From the NCBI GenBank assembly GCA_038065375.1, contig JBBTRE010000021.1, forward strand, positions 1-36,991: a DNA stretch of 36,991 nt, written 5' to 3'. The DNA is from Patescibacteria group bacterium. Lineage in GTDB: Bacteria > Patescibacteriota > Minisyncoccia > UBA6257 > WO2-44-18. The notes beneath the pieces were generated by a model that was given only the letters and a program-made list of their open reading frames with translations, did no database searches and was not told the origin of the DNA. The position numbers and the translations under genes are program-made. This document shows, piece after piece, positions 6,020 to 32,746 of this stretch. The number at the start of each line of letters is the position of its first letter. Position 1 is the stretch's first letter.

Positions 6020-7091
6020 GCGGCTTTAAGTAACCCTTCTTCATCAAAAGCTCGGCGTTCAAAATTGCTACCCCGGCGGCGCCGCGAATCGTGTTGTGTC
6101 CTAAAACCACCATTTTAAAACCCAAAATTGGATCTTCCCGCAAACGTCCGACCGAAACCGACATCCCGCCTTCGCGATCCCTATCCAGACGGGTTTGCGG
6201 CCGAAAACTATCTTCGTGATAAAAAAGCGGATGCTCGGGAGCGCTCGGCAATTTCAACTTCTGCGGCTCACCCTTAAAACTTTTAATCAGCCGCTTAATC
6301 TCGCCCAACTTTGCCGGTTTGCGGGTTGAGAAGGCGACGGTGAGAAAATGCCCGTCTTTAACCGGCACCCGGTTGCACTGCGCGGAAATTTTGATATTCG
6401 CCAGCCTAAAACCTTTCTTACTTATCTCGCCAAGCAGCTTCAACGGCTCCCATTCTACCTTCGGTTCTTCGCCGCCGATCTGCGGAATGATATTGTCTAA
6501 AATATCCAGCGAAGGCACACCCGGATAACCGGCGCCGGAAATTGCCTGCATAGAAGTAACCATCACCTTGCTCACCCCGAACTTCTGATGAATCGGCTTC
6601 AGGGCCATCACCAATGGAACCGCCACACAATTCGGATTAGTGACGATAAATCCCTCCCATTTCCGGCCGGCCTGCTGAGCGGGAATCGCCGCGATATGAT
6701 CAGCATTAACTTCCGGAACCAAGAGCGGCACATCCGGCTCGGTCCGATAATTTTTAGTGTTGGAAATAACCGGGTAACCGGCTTTGGCAAAAGCTTTTTC
6801 AATCTCGCCCGCGACATTCGCGTCCAAACCGGAAAATACGAAATCGCATTTCAAATTCGCCACGGCCGCATCCTGAACTTTAATTTCCCGGATGTTTTCC
6901 GGAATATCCACCTCCTGTTTCCATCGGCCGGCCACCGCTTCCTCATATTTTTTCCCGGCCGATTCTTTAGAGGCCGCCACGGCGGTAACTTCAAACCACG
7001 GATGATTTTGAAGCAAAACAATAAACTTCTGCCCCACCGTTCCGGTAGCTCCGAGAATGCCCACTTTTAATTTCTTAATTTGTTTTTCCAT
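6012..7091 (-). CDS. asd: Aspartate-semialdehyde dehydrogenase
   Basis: GILGATGTVGQ NAD(P) loop, NPNC active-site Cys region, QCNRVPVKDGH. Overlaps thrA by 17 nt. Confidence 0.9.
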   Translation of the reverse strand: MEKQIKKLKVGILGATGTVGQKFIVLLQNHPWFEVTAVAASKESAGKKYEEAVAGRWKQEVDIPENIREIKVQDAAVANLKCDFVFSGLDANVAGEIEKAFAKAGYPVISNTKNYRTEPDVPLLVPEVNADHIAAIPAQQAGRKWEGFIVTNPNCVAVPLVMALKPIHQKFGVSKVMVTSMQAISGAGYPGVPSLDILDNIIPQIGGEEPKVEWEPLKLLGEISKKGFRLANIKISAQCNRVPVKDGHFLTVAFSTRKPAKLGEIKRLIKSFKGEPQKLKLPSAPEHPLFYHEDSFRPQTRLDRDREGGMSVSVGRLREDPILGFKMVVLGHNTIRGAAGVAILNAELLMKKGYLKPRA

Positions 7092-9444
7092 TTTTTATTC
7101 TTAAAATTCCGTTAAGCACTGCGGCCGCGGTAACTTCTGCTCCCGCCCCTGCTCCACGGATTACCAGCGGGTTTTTATAATATTTGGTATAAATAGCGAA
7201 AATATTGTCGGCGCCAGACAAACCGGCAATTGGGTGCTCCATTGGAACTTCTTTCAGCGAAGCCGCCATTCTGCCATTTTGAACCGTCGCGACATAACGC
7301 AAGACCGATTTTTTCGCCTTCGCCTTCTTAATCCGCCCGGCAAAATAGGCGTCCGGCTTAACTAAGCTTTCTAATTTTACATCAGAGAATTCGGCTGGCA
7401 AGCCAAGTTCCCTGGCAAGAATCAATAACTTCCGCCCCACATCCTGTCCGCTTAGATCCTCTCTCGGATCCGGTTCGGTATAGCCCAGAGCTTTCGCCCG
7501 GGCCACCAAATCACTAAATTTATTTTTTCCGCTGAAGTTATTAAATAAATAACTCAAGGTTCCGGAAAAGACACCTTCAATCTTTTTAATTTGGTCTCCG
7601 GCGGCAAGTAAATTCTTAATTGTGGCAATGACCGGTAGACCGGCCCCTACATTGGCGTCGTAATGGAAAGATTTCTGATAGGTGGCCAGCAGAGAGCGCA
7701 AACCCGAATATTCTTTGTGCGGCAGCACATTAAACTTTTTATTCGGCGTCACGATATGAAATCCGGCTTTTACAAGTTGCGGATACATTCTCGCCACTCT
7801 TTCGCTGGCCGTGCAATCCACAAAAACTTTCTCACCACGCATCTCCGCCGCTTGCCGGACAAATTCCGGCAGATTCACTTTTTCGCCATTTTTCAAATCC
7901 TTCTTCCAATTTTTTAAATCAATCCCGCTTTCTTTCAAGTGCATCTTCTCAACATCGGCAATTCCCCCAATCTCTAACTTTGAACTTTGAACTCTAAACT
8001 TTAAACTAGCCAGTTGCTGTAGCAATTGGCTGCCCACCACGCCCGTGCCAACTAAAAAGATCCGAAGGGACTTGGAATCAAAAAATTCGGAGTGTAAAAC
8101 ATTAATCGCCTCGGCTTTCTTTTCCTCAGACACCACTAAAGAAACATTCCGCTCCGAACCGCCCTGAGCAATCGCGGCGATATTGATTTTGGCCCGGCCT
8201 AAAGAATTGAATATTTTCCCGGCGATTCCCGGCACGCCTCGCATATTATCTCCCACAACTGCCACAATGCTCTGCCCATCCTTGCGTTCAACGGCCACCT
8301 TCCCTCTACGAATGTCATTTTCAAATTCGGACTTGATAGAAGAAACCGCCCGATCGGCTTCGGATTTTTTCACCGCCAAACAAATTGTATGCTCGGATGA
8401 AGCTTGCGCGATCAGCACCACGTTGGCTTTCGCTTCAGCAGCGGCGCGGAAAACCCGCTCCGCCGTCCCGGGCATACCGGCTAACTCCGTGCCACCGACT
8501 GTTATCAAGCTCATCCCGTCCACTGAAGAAATATTTTTTACCGGACCTTCAAAATCCTTGCTACTTGCTACTTGCTTCTTGCTACTTATTTCAGTCCCCG
8601 GGTGTTTCGGGTTAAAAGTATTTTTGATCAGCACCGGAATTCCTTTTTTAATCGCCGGAACCATCGTCGCCGGATGAATTACTTTCGCTCCGAAATAAGC
8701 CATCTCAAAGGCCTCCTCATAGCTGATTTGCGACAAGGTAAAGGCGCTTTTTACTATCCTCGGATCGGCGGTCATCACGCCGTCGGCATCTGTCCAAATT
8801 TCAATCACGTCGGCGCCAAGCGCGGCTCCGAAAATCGCGCCGCTGTAATCTGAACCGCCACGACCAAGCGTAGTCGTCTTCCCCGCGATATTAGAGCTTA
8901 TAAAACCGGTGATAACGGGGATAGGTTTTAGGGAATAGGATTTAGGGTTTAGTAATTTCCGGAAAAAGTTCTGAATATTTCTATTTGTGACAACGAAATC
9001 AACGGAGGCATTTTGAAAATTAGAATCGGTTTTCACCAACTCTCGCGAATCCACGGCAATACTTGGCGTCTTCTTATTAATATAGGCGGAAACTAAATTC
9101 GCAGACAGTCTTTCGCCAAAACTAACTACCAGATCCAGCGCCATCGGCGAAGCATCGCCAAGTAATTTAATTCCCTTCATCACACTTTCCAACTCCGACA
9201 GCAATTCGGTCGGCGCGGCTACTCTTAGTTCTTTGGCGGCAGTAAGATGTTTCTCTTTGACGAAATCAAAATCCAGCGCCAGAAGTTTATCGGTTACTCC
9301 CTGCATGGCCGACACCACCACCGCTACGCCGCCATTCTTGCGCGCTTCTAAAACAATTTTGGCGACATTTTGAATCCGCTCGGCTGAGCCGACGGAAGAA
9401 CCGCCAAATTTCATTACTTTTACAAATTTTGCCGCCTTTGGCAT
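7075..9444 (-). CDS. thrA: Bifunctional aspartokinase / homoserine dehydrogenase
   Basis: N-terminal VMKFGGSSVG kinase motif and GRGGSDYS. C-terminal LVGTGVVG Rossmann loop with the VTPNKK homoserine dehydrogenase motif. 789 aa. Confidence 0.9.
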   Translation of the reverse strand: MPKAAKFVKVMKFGGSSVGSAERIQNVAKIVLEARKNGGVAVVVSAMQGVTDKLLALDFDFVKEKHLTAAKELRVAAPTELLSELESVMKGIKLLGDASPMALDLVVSFGERLSANLVSAYINKKTPSIAVDSRELVKTDSNFQNASVDFVVTNRNIQNFFRKLLNPKSYSLKPIPVITGFISSNIAGKTTTLGRGGSDYSGAIFGAALGADVIEIWTDADGVMTADPRIVKSAFTLSQISYEEAFEMAYFGAKVIHPATMVPAIKKGIPVLIKNTFNPKHPGTEISSKKQVASSKDFEGPVKNISSVDGMSLITVGGTELAGMPGTAERVFRAAAEAKANVVLIAQASSEHTICLAVKKSEADRAVSSIKSEFENDIRRGKVAVERKDGQSIVAVVGDNMRGVPGIAGKIFNSLGRAKINIAAIAQGGSERNVSLVVSEEKKAEAINVLHSEFFDSKSLRIFLVGTGVVGSQLLQQLASLKFRVQSSKLEIGGIADVEKMHLKESGIDLKNWKKDLKNGEKVNLPEFVRQAAEMRGEKVFVDCTASERVARMYPQLVKAGFHIVTPNKKFNVLPHKEYSGLRSLLATYQKSFHYDANVGAGLPVIATIKNLLAAGDQIKKIEGVFSGTLSYLFNNFSGKNKFSDLVARAKALGYTEPDPREDLSGQDVGRKLLILARELGLPAEFSDVKLESLVKPDAYFAGRIKKAKAKKSVLRYVATVQNGRMAASLKEVPMEHPIAGLSGADNIFAIYTKYYKNPLVIRGAGAGAEVTAAAVLNGILRIKNGKTN

Positions 9445-27169: not shown

Positions 27170-27412
27170 TTAACCCTTCGCGCCAGCCTGCTTCTTGAAT
27201 TCAACTTCCGAACCGGGAGGAACCACGTCACTTTCATCGTGCACGGCTCTTCCATTCACGAATACCAGCGCGTGATCATTGGTGATGTTCATCACCTCGC
27301 GATACTTCCGACGAAGTCCGCTGACCGTAATCGGACCTCCCGAATAGTTCACGCTTTCGGCGCCGGAAGACACTCTGATCGAACGGCCGTCACCAGAACT
27401 CTGGTCACCCAT
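27170..27412 (-). CDS. Ubiquitin-like (ThiS/MoaD-type beta-grasp) small protein ending in Gly
   Basis: 80 aa. ALVFVNGRAV...VVPPGSEVEF resembles the ThiS/MoaD C-terminal half. Last residue is G80 (..QAGAKG-stop). AAAGGAGAA SD lies within the end of the E1 gene. Confidence 0.6.
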   Translation of the reverse strand: MGDQSSGDGRSIRVSSGAESVNYSGGPITVSGLRRKYREVMNITNDHALVFVNGRAVHDESDVVPPGSEVEFKKQAGAKG

Positions 27413-27415
27413 TTC

Positions 27416-28123
27416 TTATTCTCCTTTCACTGAGGTTGAAAAAACTGCAGGTAGTGTAGCAGAGCGGGAGTTCCCTGTCAATATATCAAAGTAAATCTCG
27501 TGATGAGGCGTCTTGCCTTCCTGAAGCCAGATCGTATAGATGCTGACCATCACGGAGGCCGCCGCCAGATTGGCCGCCAACACCTGCGTCACTCCGGCTT
27601 CCACCAGCTCTCCGCAATGGAGATCGTTGGGATGTTTGTCGGTCGGAAATTCAATTTCCGGATGAGCGAAGGTAAGCGGCGGCGTGATATCTTTGCCGCC
27701 CTCTCGGCGATAGACCTGCGCGTTGCCGTCTCTGACTTCATTGCCTCCGGAGATCAACAGGGCGTTATCCAGAGTGGCCACCCGATCGGAAACAATCTTC
27801 CGGGTCGCGTGATTATCCACCCCCAGAAACACCGAGTCATTTTCCTTAATGAATAAAAAGGCATTTTCCGCGGTGATGTAGGTTGGCTTGAACTCAATCT
27901 CCAGGTTTGGGAAAAAATCCTTGAGCCGGACACAAGTCTCTTGCGCCTTGTTGGCCTGCTCCCGGAAGATTTGCCGTTCCCGGTTTCTCTCTTCATATTT
28001 ATCCCCGTCCACCATCAGAATTCTCCGTGATGCCCTGGGGCTTTTACTGGAAGAAGAAATCCGGCAGATGGGTTCGGCCAAGTAGGTGCCGATGCCACCC
28101 AATCCGATGATTACCGTTCTCAT
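27416..28123 (-). CDS. Minimal ThiF/MoeB/E1-like adenylyltransferase (235 aa)
   Basis: IIGLGGIGT Rossmann loop, MVDGD, NRERQ (E1 Arg/Gln motif), GVDNHATR. No rhodanese or UFD domain. TAATG overlap with the JAB gene. Confidence 0.7.
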   Translation of the reverse strand: MRTVIIGLGGIGTYLAEPICRISSSSKSPRASRRILMVDGDKYEERNRERQIFREQANKAQETCVRLKDFFPNLEIEFKPTYITAENAFLFIKENDSVFLGVDNHATRKIVSDRVATLDNALLISGGNEVRDGNAQVYRREGGKDITPPLTFAHPEIEFPTDKHPNDLHCGELVEAGVTQVLAANLAAASVMVSIYTIWLQEGKTPHHEIYFDILTGNSRSATLPAVFSTSVKGE

Positions 28124-29115
28124 TAGGTCCCACCTTCTCTGTAAACTTTCTTCTGAATCGGGATAACCGGCTTGCCCGCCGTGGCGGGCTTATCCGCCAC
28201 GGCGGGCTTTTTCGCCTGATTTTCTCTGTTCCACTTATCACGGAAGGCCAGCGCCCATTTGCGCGCTTCCTCCGAAGTCATATTTCTGACAACGCCCTCC
28301 GCGTCCTTAACTTCCCGAGTGACCACCCTGGAGAAAAAACTTCTAGTAGTCACTTGGACCAGCCAGGTCGGTGGAGGAGAGTAATCAACCGGAAGAAGTT
28401 CTTCTTCGCCTTCCAAAGTAAACATTCTGTCGGAAGAATCGCTCCTGCCCCAAGCGGACCCCTCCCTCATGGGCGCCTCCCGAGTGATCGCCTCGCCGAA
28501 AGTTCTCGGTTCGGCGCCTTCCCTCTTCAGGCCGCGCATTACGTCTTCAACCCGCAAAGGAAAGCGATATCCGTTGACCGCCGCTTCCACGCTGACGGAA
28601 ATCGGTCCGGTCCTGTTCCAGCGAGGGAAACTGCCGAAAGTCACGTGAATGCCATTCAGCGAAGCTTCATCGTGTAAATCCGTCCCGGAATGAAACGCGC
28701 TCAGCTTGCCATGCGAATGCATAGTGCCGACCATCACCCAACCGGGACCCAGATCCAGCTTAGGGAACTCGTAATCAATCTTGGCCGGGCTTACGGTCTG
28801 TTTCGGCGCCATCATAAAGAAACGCTTATCAGTTTCGTTTTGGTAAATCAGGACAATCGCCTCCGAATCGTGCTCCCGGCAAATCCAGGCAAAGAATCGG
28901 GCGGCCTTCAGCACCAAGCCTTTGGGAAAAGGCGGAAGATAGGATTCAAAATCCGGAGCTCCCTCTTCAAGAGTGCTGATGCGATCCACCGGCACTACGG
29001 CTTTCCAAAACGGCATCTGCTTATGAAGGAAGATGCCATTCGCCGCGATTTCGTAAAAAATCTCGTCCGGCGGCTTAGGATTCTTACCGTCGTTAATCCA
29101 GACGGGATACAACAT
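28123..29115 (-). CDS. JAB/MPN+ (JAMM) metalloprotease with N- and C-terminal extensions
   Basis: E85, then H133-S-H135-x7-S143-G-T-D146, a complete JAMM motif. 330 aa. Confidence 0.75.
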   Translation of the reverse strand: MLYPVWINDGKNPKPPDEIFYEIAANGIFLHKQMPFWKAVVPVDRISTLEEGAPDFESYLPPFPKGLVLKAARFFAWICREHDSEAIVLIYQNETDKRFFMMAPKQTVSPAKIDYEFPKLDLGPGWVMVGTMHSHGKLSAFHSGTDLHDEASLNGIHVTFGSFPRWNRTGPISVSVEAAVNGYRFPLRVEDVMRGLKREGAEPRTFGEAITREAPMREGSAWGRSDSSDRMFTLEGEEELLPVDYSPPPTWLVQVTTRSFFSRVVTREVKDAEGVVRNMTSEEARKWALAFRDKWNRENQAKKPAVADKPATAGKPVIPIQKKVYREGGT

Positions 29116-29125
29116 TTGGCAGCTC

Positions 29126-30493
29126 CTATTCTTTCTTTGATTGGGGTTGATCGTGTTTCATCAGGTCCTCCAGGTAAGTTTTGCTGACCGACTTGGCCAA
29201 GTTTCCGCAGGAATCCTTAAGACTAGTAGCTGTCTTACGCTTAGCCAGAGCAAAAGAATCTCCAACTTCGGCGCAAATCTTTTTCTTTTCGGTGGCTGAA
29301 ATGGTGAAATGATCGCTAAGGGAAAAAACCTGCTCTTCCAACTCTTCCCGGAGCTGGTCTACCTGCTTCTTTTTCACCGCCACCCACTCCTCCGCCGAGT
29401 TGTCCTGCAGGCGATCCTCGCGGTCATCTTTAATGATCGTCTCCATGGCGCGCCGCGCGAAACTCTGCAAATCGTAATCGCAGGGAAGCCAGTCCATCTC
29501 CACCATCTTTTCGGGATTGGAGGCCGAAAGCTTTTCCCACGACTCAACGGTTTCCAGTTCGGGATTACGCTTGCAGGCAATCTCGTAAAACTGGGTGAGG
29601 CCGTGCGCGATGAACTTACTGCCCCAGAACCATTCAAAAAGCTTGTTGAAGCAATCCGGGTCTTCCAGTTTAACGGGCGGCATATCGTTGTAGCCAAGGC
29701 AGAAATTATGCGGCCAATCGCCCCAGATATGCGGGAGGTTAGACCAACACAACTTGTCCTCGGCAGTTTTCAGCGGCGCCGAACGATAAAACATCCAGAA
29801 ACCGTGATGCGACCCTCTGCTACTGCGGAGGTACAGTTGACCATCCCGAAACAAAACCAGGAAGACCTGCCACGGAAAGGCAAGATGCCGATTACTATCC
29901 CAGATATTCACTACCCGCCGCTGAGGCGCGAACTCCACGCAATACATCTTGTACTGATGGTGAGAGGTCTGCGCTTCCCAGATAAAACGCGTCCCGGGCA
30001 AAAGCGGCCCGACGCACCGCATAACCGCGGCCTTCATGATTTCCTGAGTCTGCAGATACTTCTCCGCCCAGACTTTGCCGATTTCATCAAAACGCTTTTC
30101 CAGCGCTTCGCGAAAAACTCCGGCGCCACCGGCGGCAACTTTCTCCACAAACTTTTTACGGAATTCCTTCATCGCTTCACTGAAAAAAGTCTGAAAAAGA
30201 CCGTCGGTATTGACGCTAAAATCTTCAATCATCCGGTCGGCATCCGCGATCCAGTGTTGCAACGCCTCGTCGGCCTCCTTATCAATGGAGCGCGCCAGCG
30301 AAACATCCAACGGATCCGGGTCTTGCGCGATCTCCAGATGCTTTTTCTCTCCCCACCAGTGATCACGTTTCTTGGTCTTGAGATTCCAAATCTTTCCATC
30401 ACCGTCAATCAGCCGCTTACTTTCAAAAGGCAATCCGGTAATTTCCGCCGGTAGCTTTGTCGGCTTCGGCCCTTCGTTCTTCTTGTCAGCCAC
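29126..30493 (-). CDS. Large protein with a putative E2/UBC-like catalytic core
   Basis: GTG start 8 nt after GGAGA. A beta-rich core at residues about 180-245 is followed by NLPHIWGDWPHNFCLG. H255 to C265 matches the HPN-x7-C spacing of canonical E2s. The CDS call is firm; the E2 assignment is inference. Confidence 0.5.
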   Translation of the reverse strand: MADKKNEGPKPTKLPAEITGLPFESKRLIDGDGKIWNLKTKKRDHWWGEKKHLEIAQDPDPLDVSLARSIDKEADEALQHWIADADRMIEDFSVNTDGLFQTFFSEAMKEFRKKFVEKVAAGGAGVFREALEKRFDEIGKVWAEKYLQTQEIMKAAVMRCVGPLLPGTRFIWEAQTSHHQYKMYCVEFAPQRRVVNIWDSNRHLAFPWQVFLVLFRDGQLYLRSSRGSHHGFWMFYRSAPLKTAEDKLCWSNLPHIWGDWPHNFCLGYNDMPPVKLEDPDCFNKLFEWFWGSKFIAHGLTQFYEIACKRNPELETVESWEKLSASNPEKMVEMDWLPCDYDLQSFARRAMETIIKDDREDRLQDNSAEEWVAVKKKQVDQLREELEEQVFSLSDHFTISATEKKKICAEVGDSFALAKRKTATSLKDSCGNLAKSVSKTYLEDLMKHDQPQSKKE

Positions 30494-30543: not shown

Positions 30544-30572
30544 ATCTTAAGGTTTTTCTCCAAAAAAGTCAA
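30544..30572 (-). promoter_or_regulatory. Sigma70-like promoter of the Ubl cassette
   Basis: On the minus strand: TTGACT, 17 nt spacer, TAAGAT. It lies 4 nt downstream of the tRNA 3' end. Confidence 0.6.
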
Positions 30573-30575
30573 GTG

Positions 30576-30651
30576 TTGCGGGGGCGGGATTTGAACCCGC
30601 GATCTTCAGGTTATGGGCCTGACGAGATAGACCGAGCTTCTCCACCCCGCT
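30576..30651 (-). tRNA. tRNA-Met (CAU), initiator-like
   Basis: Hand-folded cloverleaf nearly collinear with E. coli tRNA-fMet: 1:72 mismatch (A1/A72), A11:U24, A73, T-loop TTCAAAT. No encoded CCA. Confidence 0.85.
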
Positions 30652-32141: not shown

Positions 32142-32213
32142 GCCGACGTAGCTCAGTGGTAGAGCAGGGTTTTCATAAGACCAAGGTCGGAGGTTCGATC
32201 CCTCCCGTCGGCA
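32142..32213 (+). tRNA. tRNA with CAU anticodon (elongator Met or Ile2/lysidine type)
   Basis: Hand-folded: acceptor GCCGACG/CGTCGGC, D arm GCTC/GAGC, anticodon loop TTCATAA, T arm GGAGG-TTCGATC-CCTCC. The anticodon stem has a 27:43 G-A mismatch. No encoded CCA. Confidence 0.75.
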
Positions 32214-32218
32214 CTAAA

Positions 32219-32746
32219 ATGAATAAAATATTGCTTAACGGGAAGGAATTGAGTTTAACAGAATCCATTTTGCCCATGTTAGTCCACGGAGAAGACAAGT
32301 CCGGATCGTCCCTGTATACGATTAGCTTGGCCGCGAATTTTTATTCACAGGGTTCTAAATTACTTTTACTTTGTGGTTATACGCAAGCTCCGGAGGAATT
32401 TACAAAACAAGTCGGGAGCTTTGATAATTCAGTATCCTTCTTCGTGAAAGAGCGGGCTGAAGATTTTAAAAAGAAGTTGTCAAAAACTAATGATGAAATT
32501 GTGATTATCAAAAATATAGAGTTGCTCACGGAAGATATCTTTAACCTTGTAACCGGGGTTCAAAAGCTCATCATTTCGGGCGATATCAGCCGATGTTCTT
32601 TCAAGAAAAAAATTTTAGAGGAACCCTTCGCCACAAAAGTTTACTTTTCCGGACTTGAGAGTTCCGACATTCCTAAACTTGAAAAATATAGTGGATTTCT
32701 TAATTCCAAAAACCTACAAGGCATAACACGCCTGCAAATAAATTAA
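32219..32746 (+). CDS. Hypothetical protein (175 aa), visibly AT-rich gene
   Basis: First ATG falls 6 nt after the tRNA 3' end, with no SD. HGEDKSGSS may be a degenerate P-loop. The listed ORF start at 32156 is inside the tRNA. Confidence 0.5.
   Translation: MNKILLNGKELSLTESILPMLVHGEDKSGSSLYTISLAANFYSQGSKLLLLCGYTQAPEEFTKQVGSFDNSVSFFVKERAEDFKKKLSKTNDEIVIIKNIELLTEDIFNLVTGVQKLIISGDISRCSFKKKILEEPFATKVYFSGLESSDIPKLEKYSGFLNSKNLQGITRLQIN

Follow-up and report, generated by a model that had tools for sequence, protein, structure and literature searches.

A contig of 36,991 nucleotides from a Patescibacteria group bacterium (NCBI GenBank assembly GCA_038065375.1, contig JBBTRE010000021.1), hereafter the window, carries on its minus strand a tightly packed operon of four genes in the order E2-like protein, JAB peptidase, E1 and ubiquitin-like protein (Ubl). 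The first gene encodes a divergent 455-aa protein, which is probably the E2-like carrier or ligase of a self-contained, translationally coupled Ubl conjugation cassette. An earlier reading of the letters, hereafter the sequence-only reading, had taken this protein for an E2 on account of H255 and C265 at a canonical spacing. An E2-like identity is supported by a link to the Prok-E2_D family through transitive profiles, by the conservation of C265 and by the neighbouring E1, JAB and Ubl genes, but not by H255. Ubiquitin-like systems of bacteria and phages have here an uncharacterised branch, which the window cassette represents in compact form.

The four-gene cassette

The E2-like gene comes first in the operon. 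It is separated from the JAB gene by 10 nt, the start codon of the E1 gene overlaps the JAB stop codon by 1 base (ATGA), and 3 nt lie between the E1 and Ubl genes. The features of the cassette are as follows.

29126..30493, minus strand: 455-aa E2-like protein, operon gene 1, assigned as a divergent long form of the Prok-E2_D / PRTRC-B superfamily (open reading frame (ORF) and translation)
29450..30016, minus strand: conserved core domain, residues 160-348, with beta-meander, Cys loop and helices (AlphaFold2 (AF2) core model and family alignment)
29699..29740, minus strand: predicted active-site loop N252-L-P-H255...C265, corresponding to the family motif N-L-P-N-[IV]-x6-C-[LF]-G
28123..29115, minus strand: 330-aa JAB/JAMM metallopeptidase (Pfam Prok-JAB 2.9e-7; PRTRC_A 3.6e-10)
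28861-28863 and 28678-28719, minus strand: JAB zinc-site residues E85 and H133-S-H135-x7-S143-x2-D146, respectively (motif)
27416..28123, minus strand: 235-aa minimal ThiF-type E1 (Pfam ThiF 9.4e-18; PRTRC_ThiF 2.3e-7)
28088-28105, 27815-27817 and 27614-27616, minus strand: E1 sites GLGGIG, D103 and C170, respectively
27170..27412, minus strand: 80-aa ThiS/MoaD-like Ubl ending in ...EFKKQAGAKG-stop, with the G80 codon at 27173-27175

The presence of E1, JAB and Ubl genes next to it supports the E2-like function that the sequence-only reading had given to the gene. The JAB protein scores 30.8 bits against Pfam Prok-JAB, above the cut-off, and its JAMM/MPN+ zinc site (E ... HxH-x7-S-x2-D) is intact and invariant in the orthologs. 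Cys170 of the E1 is invariant in 7 divergent orthologs, and its context 'HCGE..EAGV' resembles that of the crossover-loop Cys of MoeB/ThiF. The window Ubl itself matched no model of Pfam or NCBIfam; its orthologs match Pfam ThiS at 6.9e-5 (23.8 bits, above the cut-off), 0.0066 and 0.079. The C-terminal G-x-K-G of the Ubl is conserved. It is terminal in the window and in L001, L003, L008, L010 and L023, and it is followed by 1, 2, 14 and 16 extra residues in L009, L021, L014 and L015, respectively. Judged by sequence, this tail pattern is that of Ubl precursors matured by a peptidase.

The E2-like gene is preceded by a ribosome-binding site (AGGAG) 8 nt upstream of its GTG start, and the minus-strand ORF at 29126-30493 is present in the sequence as had been described. 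Residues 1-36 of its product hold a motif, L-P-x-E-x-x-G ... G-x-x-W, that is invariant in the four closest homologs and also opens the tandem paralog in L006; the motif is possibly a docking site for the E1 or the JAB protein. At the 3' end of the JAB gene (window 28174-28207) lies a GC-rich inverted repeat with a 15-bp stem. It is part of the coding sequence for a KPAVADKPATAGKP tail, which the orthologs either lack or have in another form.

In the pathway that we infer from these components, the minimal ThiF-type E1 would adenylate Gly80, the free C-terminus of the 80-aa ThiS-like Ubl, and the Ubl would probably be loaded on the invariant crossover-loop Cys170 of the E1. Transthioesterification would then bring the Ubl to Cys265 of the E2-like protein, located in the loop that follows the beta-meander and a Pro-Asn motif (His in the window clade), from which it would be passed to target amines. 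Because no E3 is encoded, the long helical N- and C-terminal extensions of the E2-like protein may choose the target; the E3-like role that the sequence-only reading had raised for these flanks is speculative. The JAB peptidase would take the Ubl off again, and it would also mature the tail-bearing Ubls of the relatives.

The same genes might instead form a sulfur-carrier system, which we regard as quite unlikely. The ThiF/ThiS-like pair would then form a thiocarboxylate and the JAB protein would trim the carrier, as in Mec+/CysO and QbsD/QbsE, with the 455-aa protein being no E2 and acting as a Cys-dependent sulfur acceptor or biosynthetic partner. Sulfur-carrier operons combining JAB, E1 and Ubl genes are established (Iyer et al. 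2006, PMC1779556). The match of the Ubl relatives to ThiS, the minimal ThiF/MoeB type of the E1, the short C-terminal tails on some Ubl orthologs, which a JAB protein could trim, and a UBC fold that the fold search described below did not confirm all suit such a system. The ThiS/ThiF, MoaD/MoeB and CysO/Mec+ systems resemble the window cassette in pairing a beta-grasp protein of the ThiS type with a minimal E1 that has a crossover-loop Cys, in some cases together with a JAB peptidase, but they have no E2-like partner and lie amid genes of cofactor or cysteine biosynthesis, neither of which is true of the window cassette. No rhodanese or cofactor- or cysteine-synthesis gene accompanies the cassette in any locus examined, and contigs catalogued as viral often carry the cassette. 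The family of the partner protein is filed as E2 and has a PN...C motif at E2 spacing, and the Ubl ends in KG, in contrast to the GG typical of sulfur carriers.

The conserved cysteine and its loop

Column statistics were taken from 154 aligned rows of the family core, in which C265 is Cys in 131 of 148 rows; it is invariant in the four closest homologs and is kept in every tandem paralog examined. P165, E187, P190, R193, P207, W290, F294, W319 and W335 are also nearly invariant across the family. C185 was considered as a second catalytic Cys and rejected, as this position is Val in most of the family (73 rows). The predicted active-site loop of the window protein, NLPHIWGDWPHNFCLGYN, begins at residue 252, and NLPNINGGSVCFG and NLPNINNDGGVCTG are examples of the motif elsewhere in the family. 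N252 is Asn in 95 of 149 rows. On the minus strand, the codon of C265 (TGC) occupies 29699-29701, as had been noted, and that of H255 occupies 29729-29731.

The histidine requires a different account. H255 and C265 are 10 positions apart, and the pattern H-x9-C that the sequence-only reading had pointed out does exist. However, it is found twice in the 455-aa protein (255-265 and 297-307), and at least one copy arises in 22% of residue shuffles of the protein (n=5000), so the bare pattern is uninformative. Conservation of H255 among homologs, by which that reading proposed to check itself, was not found: position 255 is Asn in 117 and His in 13 of 149 rows, and a homolog of 32% identity already has Asn there. 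Conservation of C265, the other half of the same check, was. In the alignment, H255 stands at the Asn of the HPN motif of E2 enzymes, and L253 at its His. The Asn-to-Cys distance in the family has a modal value of 8 (51 of 131 rows), equal to the distance from Asn77 to Cys85 in the UbcH5-type sequence HPNINSNGSIC. The window clade has a 2-residue insertion (W-P) in the loop and His in place of the motif Asn, which brings the distance to 10. The 'exact canonical' spacing of His and Cys is therefore a coincidence, because position 255 is the family Asn shifted by the 2-residue insertion.

Family membership and fold of the core

Word-indexed searches for homologs returned merely 4, then 4, then 8 proteins, and the four homologs from such a search all belong to Patescibacteria/Parcubacteria metagenome-assembled genomes. 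An exhaustive HMMER search with a profile of 4 homologs identified 332 representative relatives at E up to 1e-3. The region common to the family covers residues ~160-348 of the window protein, so that a conserved core does exist where the sequence-only reading had placed a domain, with borders wider than the 180-285 it had given. Among 55 diverse core sequences, 19 match PF14460, 'Prokaryotic E2 family D' (Prok-E2_D), at E up to 1 (best 2.8e-9), and 12 match TIGR03737 of NCBIfam, 'PRTRC system protein B' (best 4.1e-5). The full-length relatives P0066 and P0080 reach 33.8 and 27.3 bits against Prok-E2_D, both above the 25-bit cut-off, and the close relative P0005 reaches E 0.038. In the reverse direction, the family profile picks up, at 4e-9, a bona fide Prok-E2_D protein (57.6 bits) encoded on a Paenibacillus plasmid, and the Cys of this protein (VVCFGG) aligns with C265. 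Because the relatives found by its profile reach PF14460 and TIGR03737 and because its Cys aligns with that of a bona fide member, the 455-aa protein belongs, on profile evidence and by a transitive route only, to the Prok-E2_D / PRTRC-B superfamily as a divergent long form.

The core was modelled with AF2 from 55 sequences with high confidence (pLDDT, the predicted local distance difference test, 94.4; predicted template-modelling score, pTM, 0.90). The model consists of 6-7 antiparallel strands, a long loop carrying N252...C265, and four helices. The strands comprise residues 168-175, 180-188, 191-197, 200-206, 208-216, 232-237 and 247-250 (core residue + 159), which agrees with the beta-rich stretch noticed earlier ahead of the motif. 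As modelled, the order of elements (meander, Cys loop, helices) fits an embellished UBC layout. Modelling the full length with AF2 from 4 sequences gave a poor result (pLDDT 55.8), whose Foldseek matches are meaningless.

We also compared profiles directly. With hhalign, a 123-sequence core alignment was compared with six classical E2s, giving P 0.0022, and 0 of 60 column-shuffled controls reached the score. In the resulting alignment, strands and subsequent helices follow the E2 order, and the PN motifs and the Cys residues of the two sides are paired. At the profile level this support for E2 likeness is modest and reproducible. Compared with a canonical UBC E2 (UbcH5/UBE2D2), the family shares a beta-meander, a Pro-Asn, a Cys 8 residues further on in most members, and helices. 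It differs by the missing HPN His, by a core without a recognisable N-terminal alpha-1 helix, by 6-7 strands in the core model in place of 4, and in the outcome of the structure search that follows.

Several observations weigh against an E2-like function. The 455-aa protein itself has no match among the models of Pfam, NCBIfam and PADLOC, even when E values up to 1 are allowed, and the core profile found no E2 among PDB sequences. The conserved His of HPN is absent from the family, and the window protein has Pro-His. Foldseek searches of the PDB with the core model returned no E2/UBC, RWD, Cap2 or BilB structure among the best 50 matches listed, which had a best E of 0.076 and TM of at most 0.18, even though solved structures of Cap2, BilB and eukaryotic E2s are presumably in the Foldseek PDB library. 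In the BFVD, the significant matches (E 1e-6, TMq 0.6-0.7) were members of the family from uncultured Caudovirales, themselves uncharacterised, and the only annotated E2, a Type II CBASS E2 (cyclic-oligonucleotide-based antiphage signalling system), matched weakly (E 0.56, TMq 0.27). The six E2 sequences for hhalign were entered by hand, and with the 55-sequence profile the comparison was marginal (P 0.016; 1 of 40 column-shuffled controls reached the score). In the literature consulted we found no biochemistry of Prok-E2_D/PRTRC-type proteins. The UBC-like fold anticipated by the sequence-only reading would fit the order of elements in the model, but no E2 among those 50 PDB matches confirms it, and the unconfirmed UBC fold of the modelled core is the main weakness of the E2 reading.

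The absence of an E2 from those 50 matches would also suit two other explanations. The first is a non-catalytic partner, such as a target, scaffold or adaptor, in which C265 would have a structural role and conjugation of the Ubl would need no enzyme but the E1, as in archaeal SAMP/UbaA; E2-independent Ubl conjugation does exist in archaea (SAMP). The long coiled helical extensions look scaffold-like, and the absence of an E2 from the best 50 Foldseek PDB matches would be natural for such a protein. We nevertheless consider it unlikely. Although the 332 representatives are highly divergent and other Cys positions vary, a single Cys is nearly invariant among them, that Cys sits in a conserved loop motif without a partner Cys or His for a metal site, and all tandem paralogs keep it.

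The second explanation, a very unlikely one in our view, is that a Cys-dependent Ubl transferase on a non-UBC fold has converged with E2 enzymes, in which case the PN...C motif would be analogous and the placement as E2 in Pfam would be wrong. A model of high confidence with no UBC-like structure among its best 50 Foldseek PDB matches might speak for it, as do the 6-7 strands before the loop, compared with 4 in UBC. However, the hhalign alignment (P 0.0022) recovers strands, PN, Cys and helices in E2 order, the order of secondary-structure elements (meander, Cys loop, three to four helices) is that of UBC, and Foldseek is known to miss embellished small folds. An E2-like carrier is our preferred interpretation of the 455-aa protein.

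Among PDB sequences, the core profile matched only the C-terminal region of GNPTAB (GlcNAc-1-phosphotransferase), with E 0.0078 and probably by chance. In this alignment, which concerns window 29450-29740 (core positions 79-147), VCLND is paired with the family Cys and FYESMF with FWxSxF. The search of PDB sequences with the full-length profile was set aside, as the helical tails produced nothing but coiled-coil noise.

Recurrence, related systems and genomic setting

The four-gene cassette recurs in about nine divergent metagenomic lineages, nearly always in the window order. The four genes are found together in L001/L003, L008 (Candidatus Paceibacter), L009, L010, L015, L021, L022 and L023, in the window order except in L015 and L022, and the E2-like proteins of the cassette lineages are 20-30% identical to each other. 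The short contigs L019 and L020 hold the first two or three cassette genes. The Paenibacillus plasmid carries Prok-E2_D, JAB and ThiF in the window order, and no Ubl was detected there. A search with the alignment of the window clade reached merely 3 genome loci, and neither this alignment nor that of subfamily A7 found any viral contig. With a subfamily alignment, 20 IMG/VR contigs catalogued as viral (24-527 kb; L024-L043) were found, 19 of which have the E2-like, JAB, E1 and Ubl genes in the window order. Searches with tblastn found no match to the window protein and its viral relatives in GenBank phages, and none to P0066 in plasmids.

Individual loci vary around this arrangement. Many of the IMG/VR contigs have a second, weaker E1-like gene after the Ubl gene, and Mre11/Rad50-like genes lie upstream in one of them. 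Tandem duplication of the E2-like gene is seen in several lineages, including the L010-12 cassette (L010:6046-7026 + 7001-7882), L014 (7001-7792 + 8244-9071), L006 (3147-3242), where just residues 1-32 of the second copy are on the contig, and L024, L025 and L042 with 2-3 tandem paralogs. In L014, the two copies flank the Ubl gene, with no E1 or JAB gene within 7 kb. We rejected the possibility that the tandem paralogs are UEV-like inactive partners, as both paralogs in L010 and L014 keep the Cys. A Stealth_CR1/CR2 gene is located 1.5 kb upstream of the cassette in L010-L012. The plasmid pBpOF4-01 of Alkalihalophilus pseudofirmus OF4 (L018) has a related JAB-ThiF pair, no detectable E2-like gene and an IS21 element ~1.2 kb upstream of the pair, and it may be a disrupted cassette.

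In L015/16, the Ubl gene comes first and an AAA ATPase gene lies upstream. This ATPase (L015:4881-6596, L016:72-1535) has the OB domain of proteasomal ATPases (Prot_ATP_ID_OB_C 3.2e-5, above the cut-off) and is encoded directly upstream of the Ubl, E2-like, JAB and E1 genes. Another AAA ATPase gene (L013:3390-5138) is directly upstream of a lone E2-like gene. Ubl tagging and unfolding may be connected, as this adjacency hints. In L015, a further ThiF gene is found 5 kb upstream.

The closest known relatives are PF14460/TIGR03737 (PRTRC-B) proteins, which have a homologous core and the same conserved Cys. The window JAB and E1 are likewise closest to PRTRC_A and PRTRC_ThiF, and the order of E2_D, JAB and ThiF genes is that of the Paenibacillus plasmid. 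Unlike those proteins, the window protein falls below every curated threshold, is ~200 residues longer with its helical N- and C-terminal extensions, and has His for the motif Asn together with the 2-residue insertion in the loop. The PRTRC system proper includes ParB and proteins D/E/F and is typically found on a plasmid or an integrative and conjugative element, whereas the window cassette lies among Patescibacteria housekeeping genes. None of ParB or PRTRC proteins D/E/F was recognised among the scanned neighbours, of which a 219-aa and a 196-aa protein are unassigned.

Functional parallels are found in three other bacterial systems, with none of which the window cassette can be identified. 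BilABCD consists of Ubl, E2, JAB and E1 without an E3; its E2 is thought to pick the targets and its JAB matures Ubl tails (PMC10557695, PMC11601596). The window has the same four components and likewise no E3, but it is not a Bil system because its E1 is a single 235-aa ThiF domain, in contrast to the multidomain Bil E1 (IAD-AAD-CYS), and because the CEHH motif of the Bil E2, which also has a demonstrable UBC fold, is missing. Type II CBASS Cap2/Cap3 likewise combines E1 and E2 chemistry with a JAB peptidase. However, E1 and E2 are fused in Cap2, and what it conjugates is a cGAS-like enzyme, whereas in the window the E1 and E2-like genes are separate, a Ubl is present, no CD-NTase or effector gene adjoins the cassette and the E2-like protein does not match the Cap2 models; the lack of a fusion and of a CD-NTase sets it apart from CBASS. 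PADLOC models matched none of the window E2-like protein, JAB and Ubl, and the window E1 weakly matched the E1 half of the E1-E2 models (2e-4). Bub (6E/DUF6527) likewise conjugates a Ubl in bacteria, by a pathway that has diverged and whose active sites are unusual (PMC11601596). It differs in using Ser/Tyr oxyesters and a DUF6527 serine protease; the window cassette is not a Bub system because it has no DUF6527 gene and retains an invariant Cys in both the E1 and the E2-like protein.

CBASS Cap2/Cap3, Bil and Bub have only recently been shown to be real conjugation pathways, most of them in phage defence, and the Prok-E2_D/PRTRC branch has so far been a purely bioinformatic prediction. This branch is far larger than the curated models capture, with 332 representative clusters, most of which have no Pfam match. 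It is present as a compact four-gene cassette in genome-reduced bacteria of the candidate phyla radiation and is frequent in contigs catalogued as viral; in the literature consulted we found no description of such cassettes in Patescibacteria. The window cassette offers a small, tractable system with a 235-aa E1, an already mature 80-aa Ubl and one candidate Cys. It could tell whether the Prok-E2_D family is an E2, what its targets are and whether the copies of phage and host work against one another. Given that no E2 appeared among the best 50 Foldseek PDB matches, solving the structure would be instructive whatever the outcome. Tentatively, and with more doubt than confidence, we suggest that there might be a widespread, undescribed class of minimal Ubl cassettes (long-form E2, JAB, 230-aa E1 and G-x-K-G Ubl) on Patescibacteria chromosomes and in large uncultured phages, in which an embellished or non-UBC E2 would select targets without an E3 and which in some lineages might feed an adjacent proteasomal-type AAA unfoldase.

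The cassette is flanked by tRNA-Met/DUF5701 on one side and triosephosphate isomerase/SIMPL on the other, and it has the same position in 75%-identical relatives. The scanned neighbours in the window are tRNA-Met, DUF5701, triosephosphate isomerase, SIMPL, RNase J and a tRNA synthetase. The flanks of the cassettes in the window, L008 and L009 differ and consist of ordinary metabolic genes. A listed ORF on the plus strand (32156-32746), whose 196-aa product has no Pfam match, starts inside a tRNA-Met (32142-32214), and its true start is probably a downstream Met (MNKILLNG...). Around the start of the E2-like gene and opposite to it, the following features were noted.

30575-30651, minus strand: tRNA-Met, upstream of the promoter-like site of the E2-like gene
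30544..30572, minus strand: promoter-like site TTGACT-17-TAAGAT, directly downstream of the tRNA-Met (consensus match only)
29309..30454, plus strand: antisense 381-aa ORF, a shadow and no gene (substitution pattern)

Compared with two 75%-identical orthologs, substitutions at codon positions 3/1/2 of the minus-strand frame numbered 191/91/47 and 184/92/62. The 381-aa antisense ORF, which had already been dismissed on the letters, is a shadow because the substitutions concentrate at the third codon position of the minus-strand frame, equivalent to the first codon position of the antisense ORF.

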